Origin: Escherichia phage PGN829.1
Reading direction: 5' to 3' (one strand)
Sequence record: NC_070871.1
DNA: 64,000 bases
The translations under genes and the position numbers were made by a program. Under the pieces are notes generated by a model that ran no database searches, had not been told where the DNA came from, and saw nothing but the letters and a program-made list of their open reading frames with translations. Within the stretch, counting starts at the first letter, position 1, and each line of letters opens with the position of its first letter. Below, piece after piece: positions 2,470 to 57,873 of the stretch.

Positions 2470-5037
2470 TTAGTTACCTTTCAGTTTATTTAGACGATTA
2501 CGGTAGAGGGACTTAAACCCAGGAATATCCTCTGGATTCTTCTTAAGGTGTTTGACCAAACTGCCCAAGTCCAGCGTCTGTAAGATGTCATTTTTATCCC
2601 AGCTATAGCTGAATAATTCTTTGTAACCATTAAGTATTTCAAAGTACTTATGGTTACGTGGATTAGTCATCACTATATATGGCTCTAGGTCATCTACTGA
2701 CTTAATGCAACCCATTTCAACAAGTTTTTCTTTGTTGTCATGTGGTCTATTCCGTAGAAAGTCGTATGCCCATTCATACTCTGGTTTAAAAATCAGATTC
2801 TGTAATGGTTTGAACGTTAGACCCAGTATGCCAAGGATTTCCCAATACTCTCTGTCATCCAGTCCTATGTATTCCAGAATACCGATGCGATGTTCAGTAA
2901 CATATTTCTTGAAGTCCTTACTGGTAATAACAGACATCAACTCATTAAAGCGAACATCATCAATGTGGATAGCACCTCGCCGTTTGGCCTTATTAGCTTC
3001 GATTTGATTGCGACAGACAACAGTATCTTCTTTCATCTCATCAGATAGCTCATACCATTTCCACATGGTTCCAATTCTGGCAGTTAATGGACTACCAGAA
3101 CCAACCTGATTAGCCAGTACATAGTACTTAGGATGCTCTACTTCAACGAAACCATACTTTTCATGACGACTTGGGTCAGCAAACTCCTTCTGAATATACG
3201 GCTTAGATTCCCAATCACCGTTTTTATTACGTACAGGAGTAGTACCAAGAACTGCATTCAATGAAATCAGAGCATTAGTTTTACCCCCTGCTTTGGTTTT
3301 ATTGGCAGCTATTGTCTTAGCCCGTTTCTCAGCAGCTATCTTAGCCTGCTCTCTGCGGTAGTTGGTTGGTTTGTCCCACTCATTATATTGAGTAAGGTCA
3401 ATCACCCGATAACCCATAGCAGTGAACTTAGCTACAGCTTCTTCTGCTGCACCCTTCTTAGGACCAACTAAGTGAACAAAAGCTGTACGCTCCAGGTCAC
3501 CTCGGTTGTATTCTGGGAAGTATGAGAAAGAGTCTGCACAATCAGATAAACGTCGGGTAACTACAACGTTCTTGGTAGTGAATATGCCAATACTCTGATG
3601 AGAGTTATGGAATATCCTAAAGTAGTCAGCGAGTTTACCCTTCTCCAAGTCAACACTGTTACCCTGGTTCACTATGTAACCAGACCACTTAATACCAGTA
3701 GCTTTTAAAGCAGCAAGCTGAGGTAAGTGTAGATGACGATATACTAATTCATGGAATGGGGAGTATGTACTTTCTTCGCGAGTATCCTTAAGAGCACGCA
3801 TAGCCTTACCATACAGCTTCTTAAGACCTGTATATTCAGGACGAGCTAATAATGCTTTATTGGATAGATTACGCCAATGCTTGATGTGATGCTTACGTTG
3901 CTTAGCCCACAAACTAGAGGACATATAACGTTGAACGATTCTGTCTGTAACAGCAAGCAGGAAAGGTGGATATTCCCAAAAGCGGGTAGAGGATTTAGAA
4001 GCATATTCCTCAACCTGCTTAATAGCTTCAGGAATCTTAGCCTTAATTTCCTTCTCCATACGGTCTACTAAATCTACACATAGAGTAGTAATACCATCGT
4101 CGGTTAACTTCTGGTTAGACAGTGTTTCTCGACTAGGAGCAATAGCTAGTGTATCTGGTGCAGCCTGAACTACTAAATTATCAGCACCAATGATATTCAT
4201 GAAGTTGAGAATAAGACCAACAGCCTCTTCACTAGCTGGGCTAGATACTATTGGGTACATTACGTTACCGTAACGAACAAATAAGTTACTGTTACCCATA
4301 TAGCCTTGATACCAGCTATCAGACATGTCATATGAACCAGGTTCAAATGACATACCTAACGTATTCAGTAAAGTGTAGTCACCCTGGTGAATACTATTAC
4401 CTTCCTCTGTTCTAACGAGTTTAGGAATACTAAGCTCAGCTTTAATCTCACCGTTAAATACAATAGATGTAATGTAATGCACAAAGGTATTTACATCATG
4501 CTTACCTAGCTGGAATTTAACTTCCAGACCAGATTCCTCAGTAGGAATATTAGTAACAATAGGAACAATACCCGGTTTACCATCGTTCTCAATTGCAGCT
4601 TTAGCTACGTTATATACCGACATCTTTCCTTGGTTCCATGAAGTAACCTGGAAGCTATCCGTATAAGCGAATGGAGATTTACATCCCAGACCAAAACCAC
4701 CAGTAACACTACTGTTGGACTTCTTAGTAGATGCACCATAGACACCATAAATGGAACCAATGAGTTCATCAGGGATGCCATTACCGAAGTCACGGAAGGT
4801 AATAAAGTTGTCAGTATCAATAGTGATACGAATAGGGGTATCAGTCTTACCTGCTTCAATATGAGCATCCCAACTGTTACAGATAGTCTCACGGACTACT
4901 GCCAGAGTAGGATTGTTATATAAGGAAGTACTTAATACGTGAAAGAATGCCGGGTCATCAGAGATGCCAAAGGCAATTGTTTCTTTGCCACCCAGTGTCG
5001 CTGAGGTAGCTACTTCATTGGTATCTGCAACTAACAT
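2470..5037 (-). CDS. rIIA-like protein with GHKL (Bergerat-fold) ATPase domain
   Basis: 855 aa; N-terminal GHKL motifs read in translation: N-box ETICNSWDAH, G1 box DFGNG, G2 box GGFGLG. Confidence 0.6.
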   Translation of the reverse strand: MLVADTNEVATSATLGGKETIAFGISDDPAFFHVLSTSLYNNPTLAVVRETICNSWDAHIEAGKTDTPIRITIDTDNFITFRDFGNGIPDELIGSIYGVYGASTKKSNSSVTGGFGLGCKSPFAYTDSFQVTSWNQGKMSVYNVAKAAIENDGKPGIVPIVTNIPTEESGLEVKFQLGKHDVNTFVHYITSIVFNGEIKAELSIPKLVRTEEGNSIHQGDYTLLNTLGMSFEPGSYDMSDSWYQGYMGNSNLFVRYGNVMYPIVSSPASEEAVGLILNFMNIIGADNLVVQAAPDTLAIAPSRETLSNQKLTDDGITTLCVDLVDRMEKEIKAKIPEAIKQVEEYASKSSTRFWEYPPFLLAVTDRIVQRYMSSSLWAKQRKHHIKHWRNLSNKALLARPEYTGLKKLYGKAMRALKDTREESTYSPFHELVYRHLHLPQLAALKATGIKWSGYIVNQGNSVDLEKGKLADYFRIFHNSHQSIGIFTTKNVVVTRRLSDCADSFSYFPEYNRGDLERTAFVHLVGPKKGAAEEAVAKFTAMGYRVIDLTQYNEWDKPTNYRREQAKIAAEKRAKTIAANKTKAGGKTNALISLNAVLGTTPVRNKNGDWESKPYIQKEFADPSRHEKYGFVEVEHPKYYVLANQVGSGSPLTARIGTMWKWYELSDEMKEDTVVCRNQIEANKAKRRGAIHIDDVRFNELMSVITSKDFKKYVTEHRIGILEYIGLDDREYWEILGILGLTFKPLQNLIFKPEYEWAYDFLRNRPHDNKEKLVEMGCIKSVDDLEPYIVMTNPRNHKYFEILNGYKELFSYSWDKNDILQTLDLGSLVKHLKKNPEDIPGFKSLYRNRLNKLKGN

Positions 5038-5870: not shown

Positions 5871-6815
5871 TCATTCAGTAATAGTTTCACCGGGGATTAA
5901 CTTACGGAATTGAATAAAGTGAAGCAGATTACCTGAGTACAGATTCCCTTCTTTATCCATGGATGTAACACCTTGTTCCCATGTAACTGGGTTCATGTTA
6001 TTCACGTACTTTTCACCAAGGTTCATAGGCGTAGCCTGATGCTCAGTAGGTGAAGCATGAATTGGTTGTTTTTCTACCAACTTAGCAAACAGGTCAAGGT
6101 CATCGCTGATAGTAGATGGCTTACCTTCGAAGTTGTTATAAGAAGCACGGGCACAGCGAGCAGCAGAGACTTTAAGCAGCAAGCCTAAAATCTCTTCATT
6201 ACTTGGTTCATCACGAGTAATTCGTTGATATTTGCAATGATTGTAAGCATTAGCACAATCAACACTACGAATATAAGGCAGATGCCAGTCACCTTTCTTG
6301 AGCTTTTGCGGAACAGATTCTTCATGAGCCTTCTTCATGGCCTGAGCCAGTAAACGGATTTCCGGTTGAGCATCCTCATGGTCACGCAATCCATAGAAAT
6401 TAGCCCAACTTGTTGAAGTTACCACTACACGGATATGTGTGAATGGTTCCAGAATACGGTTAACAATTTGCTTATGTACTTGCCCACGTCGTAGCTGTTC
6501 AGCATACACAGCAGCAGCAGATGCAGCGTTATCCCAGATAAACTTAGCATCCTCAATCTCCATGGGAGTGAGTTCTTCGTCTGCTTGCATACCTTTCTGG
6601 TTCTTACCCCAGTGACTTGGCATCACTGGTTCATTACGAACTTGTTCGATGAACTTAGCTGTGGGAATAGCACGACTGCTTGAAGCATTACGGTTGAATA
6701 CTCGGTGGGTCATAAACTCACTGTGAATGAATCGGGGATAAACCAATTCAAAGGTAGTAATACGAGTTCCTGTTTCTGGGTGAACGGAATCTGCAATGAC
6801 AGTTGCCTTAATCAT
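5871..6815 (-). CDS. ThyX-like flavin-dependent thymidylate synthase family protein (divergent)
   Basis: 314 aa; segment FMTHRVFNRNASSSRA resembles the ThyX RHR-x7-S-x-R-Y signature with substitutions; sits with dCTP deaminase in a nucleotide-metabolism block. Confidence 0.45.
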   Translation of the reverse strand: MIKATVIADSVHPETGTRITTFELVYPRFIHSEFMTHRVFNRNASSSRAIPTAKFIEQVRNEPVMPSHWGKNQKGMQADEELTPMEIEDAKFIWDNAASAAAVYAEQLRRGQVHKQIVNRILEPFTHIRVVVTSTSWANFYGLRDHEDAQPEIRLLAQAMKKAHEESVPQKLKKGDWHLPYIRSVDCANAYNHCKYQRITRDEPSNEEILGLLLKVSAARCARASYNNFEGKPSTISDDLDLFAKLVEKQPIHASPTEHQATPMNLGEKYVNNMNPVTWEQGVTSMDKEGNLYSGNLLHFIQFRKLIPGETITE

Positions 6816-26937: not shown

Positions 26938-27648
26938 ATGCAGAAATTATCGGAAGTATACCGTGGCTTGGCACTGAGTACCTTGAAGGGTACTGGTGCA
27001 ATCACGGATGACAGATTAGATATTGAACCAGATAGTAAGCCAGAGATATTGGCTGCTATTAATGAGGGGCTGGTACGTCTGCATAGTCGTTTCCCCCTTA
27101 GAACTAATAGCTGCATTGTGGAGATGAAGGAAGGTCGTACTGATTACCCTCTTCAATCCAAATATGCTTACTCCAGATTTACTAAGCCTACTCTTGAGAT
27201 CCAATACCCATACATCATGGATGGGTTCATGAAACCTTTCCAGGATGATGTTATTAAAATCCTAAATGTGTTTGATAACTCGGGTAATCGCCGTAGACTT
27301 AACGACGACTCAGACCCTCATGCAATCTTCACTCCTCGGCCTGATACTATTCAGTGTATGCGACCTCGACACTTCGAGGCACTTAACGTAACTTATCAAG
27401 CTAAGCACCCAGTACTTACGGGTGACGAAGAACAGGAAGTTGACTTAGCAGATACACTAATGACGGCACTTCATAACTGGGTTGGTTATCGTTACCACAC
27501 TGGTTTGAATACTCCGGAAGCTAATGCTAAGGCAGCAGAGTATCTGCAAACATATGAAAGCATCTGTGGTGAGGTTGTTGATTATGACCTAGCTAATGGA
27601 AGTATTTCAATTACCGAAACTAAATTTGAACAACGAGGATGGCGATGA
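26938..27648 (+). CDS. virion structural protein (N4 gp67-like by position)
   Basis: 236-aa ORF between terL and the tail fibre gene, coupled. Confidence 0.35.
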   Translation: MQKLSEVYRGLALSTLKGTGAITDDRLDIEPDSKPEILAAINEGLVRLHSRFPLRTNSCIVEMKEGRTDYPLQSKYAYSRFTKPTLEIQYPYIMDGFMKPFQDDVIKILNVFDNSGNRRRLNDDSDPHAIFTPRPDTIQCMRPRHFEALNVTYQAKHPVLTGDEEQEVDLADTLMTALHNWVGYRYHTGLNTPEANAKAAEYLQTYESICGEVVDYDLANGSISITETKFEQRGWR

Positions 27649-30600
27649 ACGCACACAACCCCTTTGATGCAAAACAGGATTGGACCAATCCATACTGTCA
27701 AAACAGTTCCAATGACCCAATGGTAGATGCACTACTCGGTAATGCTTACCATGTGGTTCGTACTGTGTACTGCAACCTGGGTAATCTTAAACTTCTGTAT
27801 GATTTCCTGAACCAATATGGGATGGTCATCGGCGTAAACTCTGAAGAGGAGTTGAAGGCATTATCCACGCAAGTTAAATACTCTCGTATCTATGGTTTCT
27901 CTCGTGCAGGTGACCGGCAGGTAACTGACTACTTGTACGTAGAGGGTGACCGTACAGGTATTCTACCCAACGATGTTGATGCAACTGGTTCATGGATTAC
28001 TGTTGCTACTTCTGGTTCCTCTAGTGGTGGTACTTCCTCTGGAGAAGGTGCTTATATTCCTTGGGTATACAGCAATGGTTCTGCTACTGGTGGGGAAACC
28101 ACAATCAATGTACCGGATGGTACGGTGGGTGTACCATTTATCATTATTAATGGTGATATGCAGTATGTAGGACGTGGTTTTGAGTTTGATGTAGACAGTT
28201 TGTCAGTAACTCTGGCTCAGCCTCTAGAAGAAGGTGATGAAGTGGTATTCCTTCTGACTGGAGTTCCTGCTGTACCAGATAATCCTAACATTAATGACTG
28301 GATTCAGATTAATTGGTTGTACAACAATGGTGCTGCTGTAGGTGGTGAGCAGGCTATTACTATTCCTTATACCTTCCAGTCTATTCCGGCTGTGTATAAG
28401 AACGGTCTTCGTTTGTATAAAGGATTAACTACTGAGTCTTATACTGCTGACCCGGATAACCAACGTATTTTTCTTACCGAACCACTGACAACCAATGATC
28501 GCTTGATAGTACAGATTGGTGGTGAAGCACGAGTATTAGAAGCAACGGATCGTACCATACAGGAAGTGGCTCGTGCGGCTAATGTAAAAGATTCTGAAGT
28601 TATTCTCAGTACTGATACAGTACATTCCTTGAATAACAAAAAAGTCATTTATAATCTTGATAATCAGCAGATTTACGTTATTCCAGAATTACCAACTAAT
28701 GTATATATATCCAGCGTAGCTGGTAATATACTTACATATATTCCGGGTAACATTCAGGTTAAGTTACTAACCAAAAAAGAAACTGACCAAATTACCCTAT
28801 GGCGGGATGCCGGGGATGTGCGGGGATGGGGCGCTAAGGGTGACGGAGTAACAGACAGCACTGCTGCATTCTTGAGCGCGTTAGCAAATCACAACAGAGC
28901 TTATGTCCCGGATGGTACTTTTTTAGTGGATACGACTGCTATTGATATCAATCTGGTTCATGGCGAAGGCTATATTCTGACAAATGCTGGCATTCGAATT
29001 TCGGTTCAACAATTTCGTCATCAGATGAAAATGGTACAGGCCAAGCTGATGGTGCCAAATTTCGGCTTTGACAACGGCACTACAGATACATCAATTTACC
29101 CTGGTGCAAGGAACGCTCTACAAGGAATAGCCGTCGTCGAAGTAAATGGGGTCACAAAACTCTTTATGTCGCAGCGTGTTGCTGGCGGTTCATGGACAGC
29201 AACCACACGTTGCAGAATTGTTGAGTGCGAACTGGTTGTCGATGGCTCTACAGTTCCACTTGTGACGTACTCAGGATTGCTTAACATTGGGCATGGTATT
29301 GATCTAACGGCTCGCATCGAGAATGGCGAAGTTTACCTTTATTCCTCACAGTCTGTTGATCCGGCCTATCCTGACGATAAGGCGGGTAAGGGTTACAGTC
29401 GCATTCACTGGCGTGGTTCACTGACCAGTCAGGCGGATGTTGAATCATTCGCACTGTGGGGGCAGGTAGGTAGCGGGCATCGTTTTGAGAAATACAACCG
29501 CGCCTGCGTTAAAATTTCTGACGATGGGAAATTTCTCATCATGGCCTCCTCGCCGGTCAATGCAGGGGCCAAGCGTCAGATCTTCGTCTACGACTTTAAG
29601 GAAGTACAGAACGCTTCGGACAAATTGTCTGTGGGACCTAAATACATTACCGAGTACTCGGTACCGAGTGAGCAAAACTCCAACGTTCTGCAGGGCATCA
29701 TGTCGGATGGGCGCACATTGACCATCAACATGGGTGGAACCGTGACCTTGAGTCCAAACTACATCATAGATGTAGGTTTCGACGGAACCACAGAAGTTCG
29801 CCAGGAGTACGAGGGTGCGCTAGACCAGTATGGGCTTTCTGGAATACTCAATAACCCAACTCAGGGCCATCCATGGCGTTTTGAACCAGAGGGAATCTGC
29901 TCATATAAAGGTGGGCGACTTGTCTCCATTGCAGAGGGCTGGTATGCAACTGCAAAAATAGTTTCATGGGAAGGGGCTAACTGGGCGTGCATTACGCCGA
30001 AAGATACAACTGGTGTCCCACCATCGAACGGTTCGTACTGGATAAAGACAACAAAGGCCGCGACTGAGGGTGCCTGGAGTTCAGCCGTCAACTATGCAAA
30101 CACAGCTGATTTCTCTCATGAAGTGAAGACTATCTACTACATTGGGCCATCACTTGGTTTGCCACAGGAAAAGCCGCTTACCAGTGGGATTAATAACAGA
30201 CCTGACCCGTCGCAGGTTCCAACCGGGCAGGGATCTGGTGCTACATCTATCGGCTTCCAGTGGCGTAATATACTCACAATCAGAGGATGGGCGGCAGCGA
30301 TAAACCGGTACTTTGATGCGTTACAATACGACAATTCATCGAGGTTAAGAATTTATGATTCCCAGGAAGGAGCTGACAATACCCAGTATGTATCAGTACA
30401 GGCCCTCTTTAATAGTACAATCAAGGCATTAATCCTCAGAGCGGGCGGCGCCAGTGTAACTGATAGTGCAGCCATGCGCTTACACAAGCGAGATGATCCC
30501 ACGTATCCTGGTTATATCGTAGAGAGCACGCGAGCAACTGGTGAGTTTTCCAGGGAAACCAATGATTCTGGGGCGACTAGGTTTGCATCTGCTGCTGGCA

Positions 30601-30818
30601 GTACGCCAGTAACAGCTTGCCGTCCCGATGATGGGATGATGTATGGATTCGAAAAAAGCAGGAATGTAAATCTCTGGGGGATCTATCGCGGGATAGGTTC
30701 CCCAGAAGGGGTGATTACGGCACCTCGTGGCTCTCTATATGTGGCAGCAACAGGCGCCCCGGCAACGTTATACGTTAAAGAATCTGGCTCAGGAAATACA
30801 GGATGGGTGGCAAAATGA
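27639..30818 (+). CDS. tail fibre/tailspike protein with conserved N-terminal virion-attachment part and GC-rich, probably exchanged, C-terminal receptor-binding/enzymatic module
   Basis: 1059 aa; GAKGDGVTDSTAAF (pectate-lyase-superfamily N-cap motif) at about aa 395; abrupt shift to GC-rich codons from about nt 28795. Confidence 0.6.
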   Translation: MAMNAHNPFDAKQDWTNPYCQNSSNDPMVDALLGNAYHVVRTVYCNLGNLKLLYDFLNQYGMVIGVNSEEELKALSTQVKYSRIYGFSRAGDRQVTDYLYVEGDRTGILPNDVDATGSWITVATSGSSSGGTSSGEGAYIPWVYSNGSATGGETTINVPDGTVGVPFIIINGDMQYVGRGFEFDVDSLSVTLAQPLEEGDEVVFLLTGVPAVPDNPNINDWIQINWLYNNGAAVGGEQAITIPYTFQSIPAVYKNGLRLYKGLTTESYTADPDNQRIFLTEPLTTNDRLIVQIGGEARVLEATDRTIQEVARAANVKDSEVILSTDTVHSLNNKKVIYNLDNQQIYVIPELPTNVYISSVAGNILTYIPGNIQVKLLTKKETDQITLWRDAGDVRGWGAKGDGVTDSTAAFLSALANHNRAYVPDGTFLVDTTAIDINLVHGEGYILTNAGIRISVQQFRHQMKMVQAKLMVPNFGFDNGTTDTSIYPGARNALQGIAVVEVNGVTKLFMSQRVAGGSWTATTRCRIVECELVVDGSTVPLVTYSGLLNIGHGIDLTARIENGEVYLYSSQSVDPAYPDDKAGKGYSRIHWRGSLTSQADVESFALWGQVGSGHRFEKYNRACVKISDDGKFLIMASSPVNAGAKRQIFVYDFKEVQNASDKLSVGPKYITEYSVPSEQNSNVLQGIMSDGRTLTINMGGTVTLSPNYIIDVGFDGTTEVRQEYEGALDQYGLSGILNNPTQGHPWRFEPEGICSYKGGRLVSIAEGWYATAKIVSWEGANWACITPKDTTGVPPSNGSYWIKTTKAATEGAWSSAVNYANTADFSHEVKTIYYIGPSLGLPQEKPLTSGINNRPDPSQVPTGQGSGATSIGFQWRNILTIRGWAAAINRYFDALQYDNSSRLRIYDSQEGADNTQYVSVQALFNSTIKALILRAGGASVTDSAAMRLHKRDDPTYPGYIVESTRATGEFSRETNDSGATRFASAAGSTPVTACRPDDGMMYGFEKSRNVNLWGIYRGIGSPEGVITAPRGSLYVAATGAPATLYVKESGSGNTGWVAK

Positions 30819-31024
30819 AAATGATGAAAGTTATTCGTGATGAAACCGGCGCAGTAATAAACATCGGCGAATGGGATTACGTTTATGCAGAATCTGAGCC
30901 GGGTAAGGGGATAGTCGCCACCAACCCGCTACCAGATGGATCAACGGAAAGCGAAGAAGAGGTGGTCAATGGCTGGGATGGCGGACTTTATGTTAAAGGT
31001 GATCCGAGGGCAAATGGGGCTTAA
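30815..31024 (+). CDS. small protein linked to the tail fibre C-terminal module (possible fibre assembly chaperone)
   Basis: 69 aa from ATG at 30815 overlapping the upstream stop (ATGA); shares GC-rich composition with the adjacent C-terminal fibre module; function inferred from position only. Confidence 0.3.
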   Translation: MKMMKVIRDETGAVINIGEWDYVYAESEPGKGIVATNPLPDGSTESEEEVVNGWDGGLYVKGDPRANGA

Positions 31025-31163
31025 TAGTTATTTTCTATACCCTGAATAGTAGACAGAGTAACTATTATGGTAACGACTATGGCAAGGATGCCAGTAATTA
31101 TAAACACGAAAATTCCTTAAACCCCTCTTCGGAGGGGTTTCCCAGAAAAACAAAGAGGTTTAC

Positions 31164-33050
31164 ATGAACGAATTATTCTCACAAGGTGGTAAAGGCTCTA
31201 CTGGTATTCTTACCAATAAACAAGCCATTGCCCGTAAGTTTGGTGTTAAGCAGAATGAAGTAGTCTACTTTTCTGTAGGTGTAGACTTGGGGGGTTACAA
31301 AGTCATTTATGACAAGACTACTCAGCGTGCTTACTCTTTGCCCGTACTCCCGGTAGGAACCACTGCTGTAAGCCTGAATGAACAAGCAATCCTGGTTCAT
31401 TCAGCAGGTACTGTTGATTTGGGGGAACTTGGGAAAAGCAGGGGGGAGTATACTACCCTACCTGGCACGTTCTCCACCGGTTCCATAGTAAATACTAAGA
31501 ATGACATACTCGTTTACAATGATACTGGATACACCTACCAGGGTGCACTACCCGTTACTGTAGCTCCTGGATCATCCCCTGTTGGGGATGCTAATTGGGT
31601 TGCTATATCCGACGCATACCTGAAAGAGGAACTACTTAATAAGTATATACACTATGTTACCCCGCAAGTATTTGGTGCTATGGGGGATGGTGTTACTGAT
31701 GATACTGAAGCCATTCAAGCAGCAATGGATTACTGTCAACTGAATCGAACTAAGTTGGTGATTCCATCCAAGAAGTACATTATTACTAAACCCTTGTTGT
31801 ATCGCAATTTAGGCTTTTATAACTATGAAATTGAAGGACAAGGTGGTAATGCAATTATTGAATTAACTACCTTAGCTAAGACAGGTATAACTGAGCCAGA
31901 TGCTTACGGGGTGGATGTTAACGTAAATGCTGCTATTGTTGTATTAACAGATACTAATCAGAGTAAGTATGCTCGTATTTCAGGTATTCGCTTTACAACT
32001 ACAGTCAATGCTGACTACGGTATCTATTTTAGTATAACGGAGAACAGTTACGTATCAGATTGCCTCTTTGAAGGTTATAAGTTTGGTATATTTGATAAAG
32101 GTTCATGGATTCAACGTATATCCCGGTGTATTGCTCGTAACTGTACGGATACCGGGTTCTATATCCAAGACGGTACTAGTACCTACATAAAAGAATGCTA
32201 TGTTGATTATGCTAATCGTGGTTACTACTTAGCTAGTGGCTATAGTTCGATTATTGATTGTGCATGCGACCATACTACCCGCTGGAGCTATGTATTTGGC
32301 GGTGGTTCCGGTGATAACGCTACTACAGATACCCGAAGCATTAGTATGCATAATTGTGGTTCTGAAAATACAGGAACGGGTTCTGCTATCTACATAGATG
32401 GTAGGGTTGCATTAGGTATTTCTAATTATCATGCGGGTAATTACCCTCCATACCAAACAGCCAATACCCCCTATCTTGTAGATGTTTCAAGTAAGGGTTC
32501 AGATTCTCAAATTACTATGAGTAATGTGCGATGTGTTAACTTCTCTTACCTTATTAATGATGCCAGCAGCTCTAATAACTATTTTGACCTTACTAACGTT
32601 ACCTGTCGTAGTACATTAACTGGTAAATACAGTCTGGCTTCTGGAACCAGGGTACTAGAAAGAACCAAGGAAGGTGGTGTACGAATCATTACTAATACTG
32701 ATTTAACTGGTATTGGTATTGTTGCTGGGGATATTGTGGACTCACTCTCCGATAACACCACTTTATCTGGTTTGCGTAATGGGCAATTCATCTATCGTAA
32801 GGGTATATCTATCACCCGCTCTACTGGTTCCGCTGGTAGTACTGAAGTAACACTACCTATTAACTTACTGGATTATCGTGTAGCCGTAACCTTTAATGGG
32901 GGTATTGGTGCATTGCAGAGTATTGCCCCTGTATTTAGCGTTACTAACCAAACCCCTTCTGGGTTTACGGTTAACTGCGCAAGTTCTCGTGGTGACGAAG
33001 CGTGGACTACATTAGGTGCAGATATTATTGTATATGGCTTGAAGCAGTAA
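31164..33050 (+). CDS. second tailspike, pectate-lyase-fold (beta-helix) depolymerase-like
   Basis: 628 aa; GAMGDGVTDDTEAIQAAMDY motif then repetitive Asn/Gly/Thr-rich beta-helix-like segments. Confidence 0.55.
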   Translation: MNELFSQGGKGSTGILTNKQAIARKFGVKQNEVVYFSVGVDLGGYKVIYDKTTQRAYSLPVLPVGTTAVSLNEQAILVHSAGTVDLGELGKSRGEYTTLPGTFSTGSIVNTKNDILVYNDTGYTYQGALPVTVAPGSSPVGDANWVAISDAYLKEELLNKYIHYVTPQVFGAMGDGVTDDTEAIQAAMDYCQLNRTKLVIPSKKYIITKPLLYRNLGFYNYEIEGQGGNAIIELTTLAKTGITEPDAYGVDVNVNAAIVVLTDTNQSKYARISGIRFTTTVNADYGIYFSITENSYVSDCLFEGYKFGIFDKGSWIQRISRCIARNCTDTGFYIQDGTSTYIKECYVDYANRGYYLASGYSSIIDCACDHTTRWSYVFGGGSGDNATTDTRSISMHNCGSENTGTGSAIYIDGRVALGISNYHAGNYPPYQTANTPYLVDVSSKGSDSQITMSNVRCVNFSYLINDASSSNNYFDLTNVTCRSTLTGKYSLASGTRVLERTKEGGVRIITNTDLTGIGIVAGDIVDSLSDNTTLSGLRNGQFIYRKGISITRSTGSAGSTEVTLPINLLDYRVAVTFNGGIGALQSIAPVFSVTNQTPSGFTVNCASSRGDEAWTTLGADIIVYGLKQ

Positions 33051-33055
33051 ATTTA

Positions 33056-33086
33056 GGTAGTGGGGTAAATTTAGTACCCCACTACC
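33056..33086 (+). promoter_or_regulatory. perfect 12-bp hairpin just downstream of the tailspike stop (no U-tract)
   Basis: GGTAGTGGGGTA-AATTTAG-TACCCCACTACC; candidate RNA-stability or processing element rather than a classical terminator. Confidence 0.35.
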
Positions 33087-33308
33087 AAACCCATTAGTGT
33101 TTGCTGATTCCATTGCTCTAACTGTAAAAATGGTTAGGGTAACTCTCCCCCATAGGGTATTGAATATATCCAATGATGCCCTTTCTACAAAGCACAGGTT
33201 TTGCTCGTCTCTTTGTCTGGATGTATTTCAGCATACTAAGTATTATCTAAGAGTCATCTTATGATACGACCCCATTGGGGTTCCTAACTTCGTAACTACG
33301 GTAATAAT

Positions 33309-33638
33309 ATGAATGAATCGGGTGAACTGCTTCTAGTCAGACTGGAGGAACGATTGAAGACTCTGTTTGAGAACCAGACAAGGGACAGACAGGACCGTGA
33401 GAAACTGGAGGAAACTCTGGGAGAACTACGGGATTCAATCAATGACATAGGTAATAGACTAAAAAATGTGGAGGATAGCTTAGCTAAGAATGAACCTACT
33501 ATTGAAGAGTTCATCACTATTAAGCATAAAGTCGTTGGTGCTGGAATTTTTGGTAAGTGGGTGTGGGCTGGGGCAGGTGCAATTATTGGTGTATTGGCTG
33601 CTGCAAGACGGGAGATATTCGCATGGTTCGTAGGCTAA
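33309..33638 (+). CDS. lysis-cassette membrane protein (holin/antiholin candidate), coiled-coil N-terminus and C-terminal TM helix
   Basis: 109 aa; C-terminal hydrophobic GAGIFGKWVWAGAGAIIGVLAAA; directly upstream of holin-like and endolysin genes. Confidence 0.35.
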   Translation: MNESGELLLVRLEERLKTLFENQTRDRQDREKLEETLGELRDSINDIGNRLKNVEDSLAKNEPTIEEFITIKHKVVGAGIFGKWVWAGAGAIIGVLAAARREIFAWFVG

Positions 33639-34997: not shown

Positions 34998-37268
34998 ATG
35001 GAACACCAAGACACTTTTAAGCCTTTACCAGACCCGGCTCAATCAGAGAAGTTAACGGACTGGAAGAAAGAACCAAGTATCCAATTACTGAAAGGTGATC
35101 TGGAATCAGCTAAACCTGCTCACGATGCAATCATGGCTCAGATTCGTGAGTGGAATGACTTGATGGAAGTTAAGGGTAAGGCTAAACCACCCAAAGTTAA
35201 AGGACGTTCGCAAGTTCAACCTAGACTGGTTCGCCGTCAGGCAGAGTGGCGTTATGCACCATTGTCTGAACCATTCCTCTCGTCTAATAAACTCTTTAAA
35301 GTAACTCCTGTTACTTTTGAAGATGAATTAGCTGCACGTCAGAATGAATTAGTTCTTAACTACCAATTCCGTACTCAGCTTAATAAAGTAAAACTGGTAG
35401 ATGATTACGTGCATAGTGTCGTAGATGACGGTACTGGTATTGCTCGTATCGGTTGGGAACGTAAGACTGTTAAGATTAAGACAGAAACCCCAGTCTTCCA
35501 GTTGTATCCAATTGAGAACCAGGAACAAGCAGATGTTCTTCAACAGGCTTTGCAGCTTCAGGCAGAGAATCCCCGTGAGTATGATGAAACAATGCCGGAA
35601 GATATTAAGGAAGCTGTTAACTACTTCAATGAAACTGGAGAAGCTACATATGCAATCCAGACCGGTGTTACTGAGGTAGAAGTAGAGAAAGCACTGGTTA
35701 ACAGACCTACCGTTGAAATGCTTAACCCCAATAACGTAGTTATTGATCCAAGCTGTAATGGTGATTTGGATAAGGCTTTGTATGCAGTCATTTCGTTTGA
35801 GACATGCAAAGCAGACCTCATGAAGAACAAAGACCGTTATCACAACCTGGATAAGATTGACTGGGAAAGTTCCAGTCCTATGACTGACCCAGACCATGAA
35901 AGTAAAACTCCTGGTGACTTCCAGTTTAAGGATGCACTTCGCAAGAAAGTAATTGCTTATGAGTATTGGGGATTCTACGACATTAACGATGATGGTTCAC
36001 TGGAACCAATTGTTGCTACCTGGATTGGCTCTACTCTTATTCGTATGGAGAAGAATCCATTCCCTGATGGTAAGTTACCGTTGGTAGTTGTTCCCTATAT
36101 GCCTCGTAAACGTGAACTCTATGGTGAAGCTGATGCTGAATTGCTAGGAGATAACCAAGCAATTCTTGGTGCAACCATGCGTGGGATGATTGACCTGTTG
36201 GGCCGAAGTGCAAATGGTCAACGTGGTTATCCTAAAGGGATGTTAGATACCCTGAACCGTCGTCGATACGATGATGGACAAGACTACGAATATAACCCAA
36301 TGCAGGGCAATCCTAGTCAGGCCATTATGGAACACAAGTTCCCTGAGTTACCCCAGTCGGCAATAGTAATGACTCAGATGCAAAACCAGGAAGCAGAAGC
36401 ACTAACGGGTGTTAAAGCATTCTCGGGTGGTGTAACTGGTGAAGCTTACGGAGATGTAGCTGCTGGTATTCGTGGTGTACTAGATGCAGCATCCAAACGT
36501 GAGATGGCAATCCTTCGTCGATTAGCTAAGGGTATGGCAGACATTGGTACTAAGATTTGTGCAATGAATGCTGTGTTCTTATCTGAGAAAGAAGTAGTAC
36601 GTATTACTAACGAGCAGTATGTAGAAATTAACCGAGAAGACCTTAAGGGTAACTTCGACATTGAGGTTGATATTAATACTGCTGAGATTGATAACCAGAA
36701 ATCCCAGGACTTGAGCTTCATGGTTCAAACGTTAGGTAATACGGTTGACCAAACTATTACGCTATCTCTTGTAGCTAAGATTGCAGAACTTAAACGTATG
36801 CCAGACCTTGCTCATGAGTTACGTACCTGGAAACCACAGCCAGACCCTATGGAAGAACAGCTTAAGCAATTGGCAATTCAGAAAGCACAGCTTGAGAATG
36901 AAGAGTTGCAAAGTAAGATTGCACTCAATATGGCTAAGGCTAAAGAGGCTGCTTCTAGTGGTGACCTTAAAGACCTGGATTATCTGGAACAGGAATCTGG
37001 TACTAAACATGCTCGTGACATGGAAAAACAAAAAGCACAATCTCAAGGAAACCAGAACCTTCAGATAACTAAGGCGTTGACAACACCTACTAAAGAAGGT
37101 GAAACTACCCCCAACATATCTGCTGCTGTTGGATATAACGCTTTGACTAATGGGAACTCTATACCAGAACGTGACTTAGCTGCACAACAAGACCCAGCTT
37201 ATTCACTTAGTTCCCAATTCTATGACCCTAGCCAAGACCCAGCATCGGCTCTTGGCATGAACTTGTAA
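34998..37268 (+). CDS. portal protein (N4 gp59-like)
   Basis: 756 aa; between lysis cassette and scaffold/MCP as in N4-like phages; size matches. Confidence 0.55.
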
Positions 37269-40085: not shown

Positions 40086-40103
40086 TAGTCCGAAATAAAA
40101 CAA

Positions 40104-40128
40104 GGGGGACATTAGTCCCCCTCTTAAT
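40104..40128 (+). terminator. intrinsic terminator after the major capsid gene
   Basis: 7-bp stem GGGGGAC/GTCCCCC, ATTA loop, then TCTTAATAAAA. Confidence 0.5.
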
Positions 40129-47390: not shown

Positions 47391-47398
47391 TACTAATA

Positions 47399-47421
47399 AA
47401 AGCCCTTCGGGGCTTTTTTCT
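47399..47421 (+). terminator. intrinsic terminator/attenuator between internal-protein gene and vRNAP gene
   Basis: Stem AGCCC/GGGCT with TTCG tetraloop followed by TTTTTTC. Confidence 0.5.
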
Positions 47422-57837: not shown

Positions 57838-57844
57838 ATGAAAA

Positions 57845-57873
57845 AGCCCCTCATTAGAGGGGCTTTAATTTTT
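57845..57873. terminator. bidirectional intrinsic terminator between convergent vRNAP and DUF2829 genes
   Basis: 8-bp stem AGCCCCTC/GAGGGGCT with ATTA loop, A-run upstream and TTTAATTTTT downstream. Confidence 0.65.

Follow-up and report, generated by a model that had tools for sequence, protein, structure and literature searches.

The tailspikes gp63.1 and gp66 of phage G7C form a branched complex (Prokhorov et al. 2017; PDB 4qnl), of which alleles are known from Alt63, Bp4, St11Ph5 and other phages. The gp66–gp63.1 and gp49–gp48 complexes are both experimentally established and, according to the literature, the XD3 domain is required for the docking of gp63.1. A terminator-like stem-loop was described between genes 66 and 63.1 (Kulikov 2012; bioRxiv 10.1101/542787). 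Likewise, Gamaleya-, Kutter- and Justusliebigviruses have a conserved terminator-like sequence of ~20 nt, 'motif three', 3' of genes for receptor-binding proteins (PMC10408124). N4-like late genes are transcribed by the host RNA polymerase; in the N4-like phage LUZ7, 14 of the 61 mapped 3' ends are predicted canonical intrinsic terminators and most ends lie at stable structures.

The locus analysed here is a new allele of this well-known two-tailspike arrangement and leaves the current understanding unchallenged. Judged by sequence, the window (the whole 64-kb stretch of DNA analysed) comes from a Gamaleyavirus, a G7C-like member of the Schitoviridae and thus an N4-family podophage. The ORF map and Pfam matches gave the late gene order adaptor, gp66, gp63.1, gp63, holin, endolysin, Rz and portal, which is that of Bp4, St11Ph5, U1G and others, with Pfam domains for the adaptor, a GH108 endolysin and a DUF7940 holin near the locus. 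The gp63.1-type ORF is placed between the gp66-type tailspike and gp63, holin and endolysin, in an N4-like late operon (Table 1). The 73-aa ORF that follows the gp66-type gene, with a short overlap, is without Pfam match, and a search for tRNA and tmRNA genes was negative.

Table 1. Features of the two-tailspike locus, in window coordinates
Feature	Coordinates	Strand	Evidence
gp66-type first tailspike, 1059 aa	27639..30818	+	PDB, Pfam and phrog matches
73-aa ORF overlapping the end of the gp66-type gene	30803..31024	+	phrog_33685, E 4e-18, function unassigned
Upstream stem-loop AAACCCCTC-TTCG-GAGGGGTTT, between the tailspike cassettes	31119..31140	+	9-bp perfect stem
gp63.1-type second tailspike gene, 628 aa	31164..33050	+	ORF, homology, synteny, predicted fold
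N-terminal anchor, aa 1-160	31164..31643	+	phmmer vs PDB
Right-handed parallel beta-helix receptor-binding/enzymatic domain (predicted), aa ~163-539	31650..32780	+	
N-cap motif GAMGDGVTDDTEAIQAAMDY, aa 171-190, beta-helix start	31674..31733	+	PF12708
C-terminal beta-sandwich domain, aa 541-628	32784..33047	+	AF2 strands 541-627
Focal hairpin, 12-bp perfect stem, 7-nt loop AATTTAG	33056..33086	+	12/12 paired
Variable spacer, probably a decayed reverse-strand gene (phrog_17779)	33087..33210	.	weak colinear match
Block conserved in all Gamaleyaviruses, 5' of gp63 and lysis cassette	33211..33308	+	blastn

The gene of the second tailspike starts with ATG, 6 nt after a Shine-Dalgarno sequence AAAGAGG, and ends with a TAA at 33048-33050. 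A phmmer search of its anchor against PDB retrieved 4oj5 (CBA120 TSP1, 1.2e-63), 4qnl (G7C gp63.1, 4.7e-54), 9d84_A (B2 gp48, 2.1e-52), 5w6f (TSP3) and 5w6h (TSP4); E-values range from 1e-43 to 1e-63 across G7C gp63.1, CBA120 TSP1/3/4 and B2 gp48, and the 4qnl and 4oj5 alignments span aa 1-181 and 1-188. The protein also matches phrog_7992 and phrog_18484, and PF18668 scores just below the Pfam cut-off at the anchor. At the nucleotide level the anchor is 84-92% identical to many Gamaleyaviruses and Kutterviruses, only across 31119/31144 to ~31429. The original prediction of a second tailspike is borne out by this homology to G7C gp63.1, the presence of a gp66-type tailspike upstream and the Gamaleyavirus synteny, which together place the ORF as an exchangeable tailspike in the gp63.1 position.

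In the gp66-type protein, aa 1-378 match PDB 9d80_D (Moo19 tailspike, 2.8e-149) and 9d83_D (B2 gp49, 2.2e-135). Residues 130-381 match CBA120 TSP2 (6w4q) and TSP4-N (7rej/7rfo), with aa 130-210 aligning to residues 256-335 of TSP4-N, the XD3 domain; phrog_12242 and phrog_16355 are matched as well. Its N-terminal ~380 aa thus comprise the virion-attachment and XD domains that, by homology, dock the second tailspike, and its C-terminal ~680 aa form a receptor-binding domain of another type, which carries a separate PF12708 N-cap (aa 394-500). Megablast matches among GenBank phages cover only nt 1-1246 of the gene. The expectation of two receptor-binding proteins is likewise supported, the binding domains of the two tailspikes having in common only a 38-aa N-cap. 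The 160-aa anchor would dock the tailspike trimer onto the gp66-type spike, itself fixed to the tail, and the virion would then carry a branched two-spike adhesin with unrelated receptor-binding domains.

The locus resembles G7C gp63.1/gp66 in its genus-level backbone, gene order, homologous anchor and gp66-type partner with XD domains and, as among the G7C alleles, the C-terminal receptor-binding domain is swapped between conserved flanks. Unlike G7C gp63.1, an SGNH esterase whose PDB match ends at aa ~181, the protein here continues as a pectate-lyase-like beta-helix. The head domains are homologous to those of CBA120 TSP1/TSP3/TSP4 and Shigella phage B2 gp48–gp49 (4oj5, 5w6f, 5w6h, 9d84), and the succession of anchor, beta-helix and C-terminal domain is that of the CBA120 TSPs and B2 gp48. 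The Kuttervirus ECML-4 has a receptor-binding domain 54% identical to that of the window; Kuttervirus CBA120 is a myovirus, whereas the phage studied here has a podovirus chassis.

The pectate-lyase-type N-cap previously noticed in the translation lies inside a PF12708 match (aa 170-253, 31.7 bits for a cut-off of 27), and F170, A172, G174, G176, D179 and D180 are invariant across 43 homologues. Phi92 gp150 (6e0v) aligns to aa 162-232. The AlphaFold check proposed for the 628-aa protein was run, and the AF2 monomer model shows the beta-helix fold, with C-terminal strands 541-627 at pLDDT ~87-95. Profile score above the curated cut-off and fold thus both support membership of the pectate-lyase-like right-handed beta-helix superfamily (PF12708/PF13229), the identity of the beta-helix to solved structures being at most about 18-25%. 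The domain most likely binds and degrades one particular O-antigen or capsule, as a hydrolase or a lyase, with D369/E401 as a candidate catalytic acid pair. Prophage homologues are merely ~55% identical, too distant for inferring serogroup specificity, and U1G and ECML-4 are absent from PMC10408124, where serogroup assignments were looked up.

The nearest record is phage U1G, with 98.4% nucleotide identity over 31144-33300, hairpin included. In U1G (NC_070872, PP766_gp78-gp80) 1-nt differences in a G-run and a C-run split the annotated tailspike gene into three fragments, and the upstream gp66 allele differs from that of the window. The two phages show 6 differences over 31314 to 33275 and ~6-19% divergence on either side, so that the hairpin lies within the most recently exchanged tract. 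The left junction is inside the conserved anchor coding region and the right one at ~33276, 190 nt past the hairpin, in the conserved block. The gp63.1 allele of the window was found alongside at least four different gp66 alleles, and the same receptor-binding domain (54-73% identity) occurs on P22-like head-binding (PF09008), Kuttervirus, Kagunavirus and Citrobacter proteins. These comparisons indicate a recently exchanged cassette of ~2 kb, which comprises the tailspike gene plus ~230 nt 3' of it and carries the hairpin.

Upstream, the stem-loop between the tailspike cassettes (dG -14.9 kcal/mol) resembles AAACCCCGC-TTAGG/TTCG-GCGGGGTT of nithesis, pSb-1, UE-S5b, ECML-4 and L025 and appears to be a variant of the conserved terminator-like motif 3' of receptor-binding-protein genes. 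An Rfam E-value search of 30800-33400 gave as sole match a sub-threshold PhotoRC-I on this stem-loop. Left of ~31130, the window falls to ~50% identity with every locus that shares its gp63.1 allele, and the stem-loop marks the left junction of the gp63.1 cassette. On the other side, phrog_17779 is an intact minus-strand gene between gp63.1 and gp63 in Bp4, nithesis, UE-S5b and pSb-1, and in ECBP1 the final 30 codons survive, 93% identical. The spacer of the window has a weak colinear match to it (31% over 32 aa, E 0.05) and is probably a remnant of this gene. Homology to 28 other records by blastn begins at 33211, in near-invariant alignment columns, and the conserved block may serve as late promoter and 5' UTR.

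The perfect 12-bp hairpin announced after the stop codon is present, 12/12 paired, 5 nt past the TAA. Its arms, GGTAGTGGGGTA (33056-33067) and TACCCCACTACC (33075-33086), form 7 G-C pairs with a dG of -22.4 kcal/mol (z = -4.7); none of 200 dinucleotide shuffles folds as well. No perfect hairpin elsewhere in the window is as long, and mononucleotide-shuffled windows hold on average 0.02 perfect stems that reach 12 bp or more and enclose a loop of 3-10 nt. The focal hairpin is real and unlikely to arise by chance. It has no further copy in the 64-kb window, and Rfam gave no family at its position, either at gathering threshold over the whole window or by E-value over 30800-33400. A predicted outer helix, in which the stop-codon region would pair with 33097-33110, is not supported, as it has breaks and shows no compensatory changes. 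A minus-strand ORF across the hairpin (33012-33173) was rejected as a gene: it is not conserved, since the indels of relatives are not multiples of 3.

Of the canonical intrinsic (Rho-independent) terminator, the hairpin has the GC-rich stem-loop near the stop and lacks the required U-rich tract, taken as about 5 or more U in the 8 nt that immediately follow the stem. The sequence 3' of it reads AAACCCATTAGT, without T-tract, and those 8 nt, AAACCCAU, hold a single U, so the absence of a U-tract noted at the outset stands; a terminator scan did not call the hairpin.

In relatives the same slot is filled by terminators made of A-tract, GC-stem and T-tract, in 6/6 GenBank sister phages and 7/13 IMG/VR N4-like loci. 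Two classes recur, AAACCCCGC..GCGGGGTT, which the upstream stem-loop fits, and AAGGCCCC..GGGGCCTT; the focal hairpin fits neither and appears, by its sequence, to be a class distinct from the sister-phage terminators. Like 'motif three' and the g66/g63.1 stem-loop, it is a GC-containing stem-loop 0-19 nt past a receptor-binding-protein stop. It differs from them in stem (12 bp against 7-9), loop (7 nt against 3-4) and the lack of a flanking A-tract or T-tract, and apparently also in sequence. Nor does it travel with the receptor-binding domain to other chassis: L024, L025, ECML-4 and UTEC10 carry their own canonical terminators. A stem-pattern scan of IMG/VR returned 10 matches, all in unrelated AT-rich phages without tailspike relative and rejected as chance or generic hairpins; the conserved 3' flank gave unrelated matches in IMG/VR, and stem plus flank gave no match in JGI metagenomes.

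The 9-bp core AGTGGGGTA/TACCCCACT is invariant in 8/8 loci with the same gp63.1 allele. Two variants exist among them, one with a 12-bp stem and 7-nt loop (AATTTAG, -22.4 kcal/mol), the other with a 10-bp stem and 5-nt loop (-19.4 kcal/mol), CTAGATG replacing AATTTAG and the tail after the stem being AUCAAACC. Between them, 6/7 loop positions and 4-5/8 positions of the 5' flank differ. The flank 3' of the hairpin is as invariant as the stem, so that conservation is not stem-specific. RNAalifold over the 8 loci gave a covariation term of 0, all 9 core pairs being invariant, and with two sequence variants only, stem conservation could reflect recent common descent.

Stable stem-loops of this kind have a known counterpart in the REP elements of E. 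coli, 3' stem-loops that stabilise mRNA without terminating transcription. The focal hairpin resembles them as a stable, U-tract-less 3' UTR hairpin with a proposed role in blocking 3'-5' exonucleases, and differs in being single copy and unrelated in sequence. For the host RNA polymerase, efficient intrinsic termination needs a U-tract. We consider it reasonably probable that the locus encodes a swappable gp63.1-type spike on a gp66-type spike, and that the hairpin is cargo of the cassette, mostly read through and acting as a stable 3' stem-loop. Beyond the anchor, the tailspike consists of a horizontally exchanged beta-helix receptor-binding domain and a C-terminal beta-sandwich, and the cassette recombines via its conserved flanks with the hairpin aboard, which fills the slot of the canonical intrinsic terminator of sister phages. 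Most transcription would run on past the hairpin to gp63, the lysis cassette and the portal gene, with weak termination or pausing at most, and the stem-loop (-22 kcal/mol) would define the 3' end of the tailspike mRNA and protect it from 3'-5' exonucleases. Its most likely role is that of a leaky terminator or a 3'-end-stabilising stem-loop. The interpretation first given for tailspike and hairpin is partly supported, and each observation behind it was confirmed.

An efficient terminator without U-tract, intrinsic or assisted by NusA or a phage factor, would close a tailspike transcription unit, and the lysis and structural genes beyond it would have a late promoter of their own in the conserved block 33211-33308. 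The very stable GC-containing stem occupies the exact slot of the sister phages' canonical terminators, the highly conserved non-coding block downstream leaves room for a promoter, and the LUZ7 3' ends are mostly not predicted canonical terminators. We nevertheless judge this unlikely, given the single U in the tail, the silent terminator scan, the need of host RNA polymerase for a U-tract on N4-type late genes, and a sigma-70 consensus scan that found no site within 33087-33308.

The hairpin might instead act in DNA, as a recombination or homing boundary of the exchangeable receptor-binding-domain cassette, as proposed in print for the g66/g63.1 stem-loop and for the conserved downstream terminators ('motif three'). 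The upstream stem-loop does coincide with a homology break to other genomes, and weak backbone homology to St11Ph5 and ECBP1 restarts right 3' of the focal hairpin. The junctions of the latest exchange, with U1G, lie elsewhere and fit plain homologous recombination via conserved flanks. The hairpin is also allele-specific, and so cannot be a shared crossover site, and it is absent beside the receptor-binding domain on other chassis, which makes this role very unlikely.

It is likewise very doubtful that the hairpin is a nearly neutral relic, once a bidirectional terminator of gp63.1 and the convergent gene, whose A/T-tracts were lost after deletion of that gene. Remnants of the phrog_17779 gene, the nil covariation, the two sequence variants and a slightly more U-rich minus-strand tail in the window variant (UAAAUUUA) would agree with such an origin. 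However, the arms are invariant though the enclosed loop is nearly all replaced, the variants preserve strong stems in different ways (base extension versus loop closure), and a 12-bp perfect stem is improbable to last absent selection; the reverse gene is missing from St11Ph5 and ECBP1 too, and both keep canonical terminators. An N4-type virion RNA polymerase promoter was rejected, those hairpins having a 5-7-bp stem and 3-nt loop in the early region, unlike this 12-bp stem and 7-nt loop in the late region.

The locus documents a receptor-binding domain that circulates among at least five phage chassis, and offers an intact copy of an allele that is fragmented in its only GenBank record (U1G). 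It could serve host-range prediction and the engineering of receptor-binding-protein swaps in Gamaleyaviruses, a modest practical value. Natural swaps occur at the conserved anchor (left boundary) and at the conserved block before gp63 (right boundary), the upstream stem-loop dividing off the gp66 cassette. A further step, which we hold decidedly unlikely, would make the hairpin a selected regulatory part of the mobile cassette, a read-through-permitting 3' stabiliser or a factor-dependent terminator replacing the usual one. A newly acquired receptor-binding domain would in that case come with a dosage setting for tailspike mRNA against the lysis and head genes that follow. The hairpin, a U-tract-less stem in a terminator slot, amounts to a small natural experiment, which could show how much termination between the tailspike and the lysis genes matters.

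The 628-aa open reading frame begins with ATG behind an AAAGAGG ribosome-binding site and ends with TAA at 33048-33050. On this frame, on the N-cap motif GAMGDGVTDDTEAIQAAMDY and on the hairpin behind the gene, both the list of ORFs and the sequence itself agree with the original prediction in every detail, and its interpretation as a second tailspike is supported by anchor, position, partner and fold. The first 160 residues match N-terminal domains of tailspikes with solved structures, namely CBA120 TSP1 (4oj5, E 1.2e-63), G7C gp63.1 (4qnl, E 4.7e-54) and Shigella phage B2 gp48 (9d84_A, E 2.1e-52), as well as CBA120 TSP3 and TSP4. The protein belongs to the gp63.1 (RBP2) class of Gamaleyavirus tailspikes, for which seven RBP2 subtypes are described among sixteen genomes of the genus (PMC10408124). 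Whereas G7C gp63.1 is an SGNH esterase, the present tailspike carries in its place a beta-helix receptor-binding domain, like many other alleles in the genus. Its Pfam family name is no evidence for a lyase rather than a hydrolase. D369 and E401 are invariant in all 43 homologues, and we propose them as candidate catalytic residues since their 32-residue spacing resembles that of the catalytic acid pairs in the P22, Sf6 and HK620 tailspikes.

The late genes follow an N4-like order on the plus strand (Table). In the gp66-type first tailspike, residues 1-378 match the Moo19 tailspike (9d80_D, E 2.8e-149), B2 gp49 (9d83_D, E 2.2e-135) and the XD domains of CBA120 TSP2 and TSP4-N. Its C-terminal ~680 aa have a separate PF12708 N-cap, where BLASTP against the 628-aa protein found 13/38 identities and nothing in common beyond, and its receptor-binding part had no megablast match in 50,697 GenBank phage records. 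The idea of two receptor-binding proteins of different specificity corresponds to the known architecture of the genus, which this phage appears to share: in G7C, gp66 joins gp63.1 in a stable, two-branched assembly that depends on the gp66 XD3 domain, and the gp48-gp49 complex of B2 was solved by cryo-EM. The small ORF overlapping the end of the gp66-type gene may encode a partner or chaperone.

Table. Positions of the genes and elements discussed; coordinates are those of the window unless another locus is named
Feature	Position	Strand	Remark
SU10-type adaptor	26938-27648	+	
gp66-type tailspike	27639-30818	+	1059 aa
gp66-type receptor-binding part	28846-30818		phrog_16355
73-aa ORF	30803-31024	+	phrog_33685, unknown function; 16-nt overlap with end of gp66-type gene
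PhotoRC-I match	31080-31136		sub-threshold
Upstream stem-loop	31119-31140		AAACCCCTC-TTCG-GAGGGGTTT
gp63.1-type tailspike	31164-33050	+	628 aa
N-cap motif	31674-31733		aa 171-190
Hairpin, 5' arm	33056-33067		GGTAGTGGGGTA
Hairpin, 3' arm	33075-33086		TACCCCACTACC
Trace of phrog_17779 gene	33087-33210		faint, colinear
Conserved non-coding block	33211-33308		upstream of gp63
Small GC hairpin	33269-33281		A-CCCC-ATT-GGGG-T
gp63	33309-33638	+	
DUF7940 holin, then GH108 endolysin, then Rz-like spanin	between gp63 and portal	+	
Portal	34998-37268	+	
Capsid genes and virion RNA polymerase	late region	+	polymerase 3456 aa
Hairpin after major capsid gene	40102-40123	+	poor plus-strand U-tract; tail CTTAATAA
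Canonical terminator	47398-47417	+	before virion RNA polymerase gene
Canonical bidirectional terminator	57843-57866	+	end of virion RNA polymerase gene
phrog_17779 gene, L003 (Bp4)	2848-3501	-	
phrog_17779 gene, comparison loci L002, L004, L005	2848-3474	-	

Five nucleotides past the stop codon stands a perfect inverted repeat with the loop AATTTAG and a tail, AAACCCATTAGT, without a T-tract; the raw sequence thus bears out the perfect 12-bp stem lacking a U-tract that was first described. It is the longest perfect hairpin of the window, where no second copy exists, and perfect stems of 12 bp or more arise at 0.02 per shuffled window. Its RNA has a folding energy of -22.4 kcal/mol (z = -4.7), a value that none of 200 dinucleotide shuffles reached. 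A consensus terminator scan did not list it and no Rfam family matches it. The eight loci that carry this tailspike allele (the window, U1G and the comparison loci L008-L013) all have the hairpin, in two variants, GGTAGTGGGGTA-AATTTAG-TACCCCACTACC with the 12-bp stem in the window, U1G and L013, and AGTGGGGTAC-TAGAT-GTACCCCACT with a 10-bp stem and 5-nt loop (-19.4 kcal/mol) in L008-L012. By blastn, the other 28 Gamaleyavirus records become homologous again only from 33211 onwards, which places the hairpin within the allele-specific part. It was not found in IMG/VR Gamaleyavirus-like contigs or JGI metagenomes, and is absent from the other phage types with this receptor-binding domain, which have canonical terminators of their own. 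A 9-bp core is invariant; the variants differ at six of seven loop nucleotides and at roughly half of the 5' flank, and their extra base pairs lie at opposite stem ends, which suggests constraint on a stable stem. Because the eight loci hold no compensatory change in the stem (covariation term 0) and the 3' flank AAACCCATTAGTG is as invariant as the core, the case for selection on structure is suggestive only.

The slot itself is a known one, and the hairpin is a minor variant within it. In sister phages, textbook bidirectional intrinsic terminators lie 1-13 nt past the stop of the gene preceding gp63: AAGGCCCCAAATGGGGCCTTTTCTT in nithesis, AAGGCCCA..TGGGCCTTTTCTT in Bp4 and ECBP1, AAAAGCCCCC..GGGGGCTTTTCC in St11Ph5 and AAACCCCGCTTCGGCGGGGTTAGTTTTT in pSb-1, with a similar element 80 nt further on in UE-S5b and slot terminators in 7/13 IMG/VR N4-like loci. 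When St11Ph5 and ECBP1 are aligned, diverged backbone homology begins immediately 3' of the hairpin or terminator, and the window reads AAA where both have the T-tract. The hairpin lacks the U-tract that defines a canonical intrinsic terminator; nor does it match the recurrent terminator motifs downstream of receptor-binding-protein genes.

Between gp63.1 and gp63, Bp4, nithesis, UE-S5b and pSb-1 carry a convergent gene of 208-217 aa on the opposite strand (phrog_17779), without a Pfam match and annotated in UE-S5b as 'tail needle knob'. The window, U1G, St11Ph5 and ECBP1 lack this gene; its last 30 codons survive in ECBP1, and only a faint trace in the window. The ~100-nt block upstream of gp63 is near-invariant across Gamaleyaviruses, conserved beyond the adjoining coding sequence, and includes a small GC hairpin with a 3-nt loop. 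No sigma-70 consensus site was found in this block, which may serve as a late promoter, as a 5' UTR or, where the reverse gene is present, as a divergent promoter region.

N4-like phages rely on the host sigma-70 RNA polymerase to transcribe their late genes, and this enzyme needs a U-tract directly past the stem for efficient intrinsic termination. Since the eight bases following the stem are AAACCCAU, the hairpin would terminate poorly, most polymerases continuing into gp63 and on to the lysis and head genes. As the positional counterpart of a terminator it may keep weak terminator or pause activity; that it terminates efficiently is unlikely. The late region of the window has few strong plus-strand terminators, canonical ones being confined to 47398-47417 and 57843-57866. 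A stem of -22 kcal/mol 5 nt past the stop codon could stall 3'-5' exonucleases and, after downstream cleavage, leave a stable 3' end on the tailspike mRNA, on the model of the REP-type stem-loops that define stable mRNA 3' ends in E. coli. The RNA stability role first suggested agrees with such stalling and is plausible. A long-read transcriptome was found in the literature for a single N4-like phage, LUZ7; there, canonical terminators were predicted at only 14 of 61 mapped 3' ends and most ends lie at stable structures, so that such structures are common at phage RNA 3' ends. We tentatively favour an RNA-level stabiliser or leaky terminator. A recombination signal acting at the DNA level is improbable: the hairpin sequence is allele-specific, and the latest exchange, between the window and U1G, has its junctions outside it. 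That the hairpin is a neutral relic seems just as doubtful.

At the upstream stem-loop the window loses homology to every genome that shares its gp63.1 allele. For G7C-like phages, a terminator-like stem-loop has been described that separates genes 63.1 and 66 and is proposed to bound g66 exchanges; ours is this element. It is a variant of AAACCCCGC..GCGGGGTT, differing by a double change from G-C to T-A that keeps the pair. The common form follows receptor-binding-protein genes of nithesis, pSb-1, UE-S5b, ECML-4 and locus L025, and probably corresponds to the terminator called 'motif three' in PMC10408124. The PhotoRC-I Rfam match over this stem-loop (28.9 bits against a gathering score of 45) is most likely a generic hairpin match. 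ECML-4 (L026, ~1985-2030) and L025 (~3485-3520) also carry an 11-bp hairpin, ATACCCCATA..TATGGGGTAT, with a 12-14-nt loop and no T-tract; this Kuttervirus-type hairpin between consecutive tailspike genes is another non-canonical stem-loop class at such junctions.

The 71 homologues of the receptor-binding domain (aa 155-628) fall into four groups: 85-95% identical on ~70-kb Gamaleyavirus contigs; 73% identical in one copy downstream of a P22-type head-binding domain (PF09008); 54-64% identical in Kuttervirus ECML-4, Kagunavirus UTEC10/CR01, P22-like E. coli prophages and Citrobacter; and 34% identical in IME10. Along 31430-32560, identity to the same-allele loci L009/L010 and L011 switches from ~55-70% to ~90-97% and back over stretches of a few hundred nucleotides, a pattern that indicates intragenic mosaicism within the beta-helix.

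By megablast, Gamaleyavirus U1G (Schitoviridae, Enquatrovirinae) is 98.4% identical to the window over 31144-33300, while in ~40 other G7C-like and Kuttervirus records the match is confined to the 5' part of the gene, from ~31119/31144 to ~31429. A near-copy of the tailspike, 98% identical, is thus already public in U1G, annotated as three fragments. At 6298 and 7323 of comparison locus L001 (U1G, NC_070872), the G6 and C5 runs are one base shorter than at 31441-31442 and 32467-32468 of the window; these missing bases account for the three CDSs (gp80, gp79, gp78) and are probably sequencing or assembly errors. The window, unlike the U1G record, carries an intact gene.

Among Gamaleyaviruses one gp63.1 allele is found with at least four different gp66 alleles, the paired genes encoding 1059, 959/964 or 374/375 aa and, in U1G, 716 + 465 aa. 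Left of ~31130, identity of the window to every same-allele locus drops to background. Within 31314-33275 the window and U1G show only six differences, three of them 1-nt homopolymer indels, whereas outside it they diverge by ~6-19% on both sides. A ~2-kb cassette was thus exchanged recently; the recombination ran through the anchor coding sequence at its left end and through the block before gp63 at its right end, both of them conserved.
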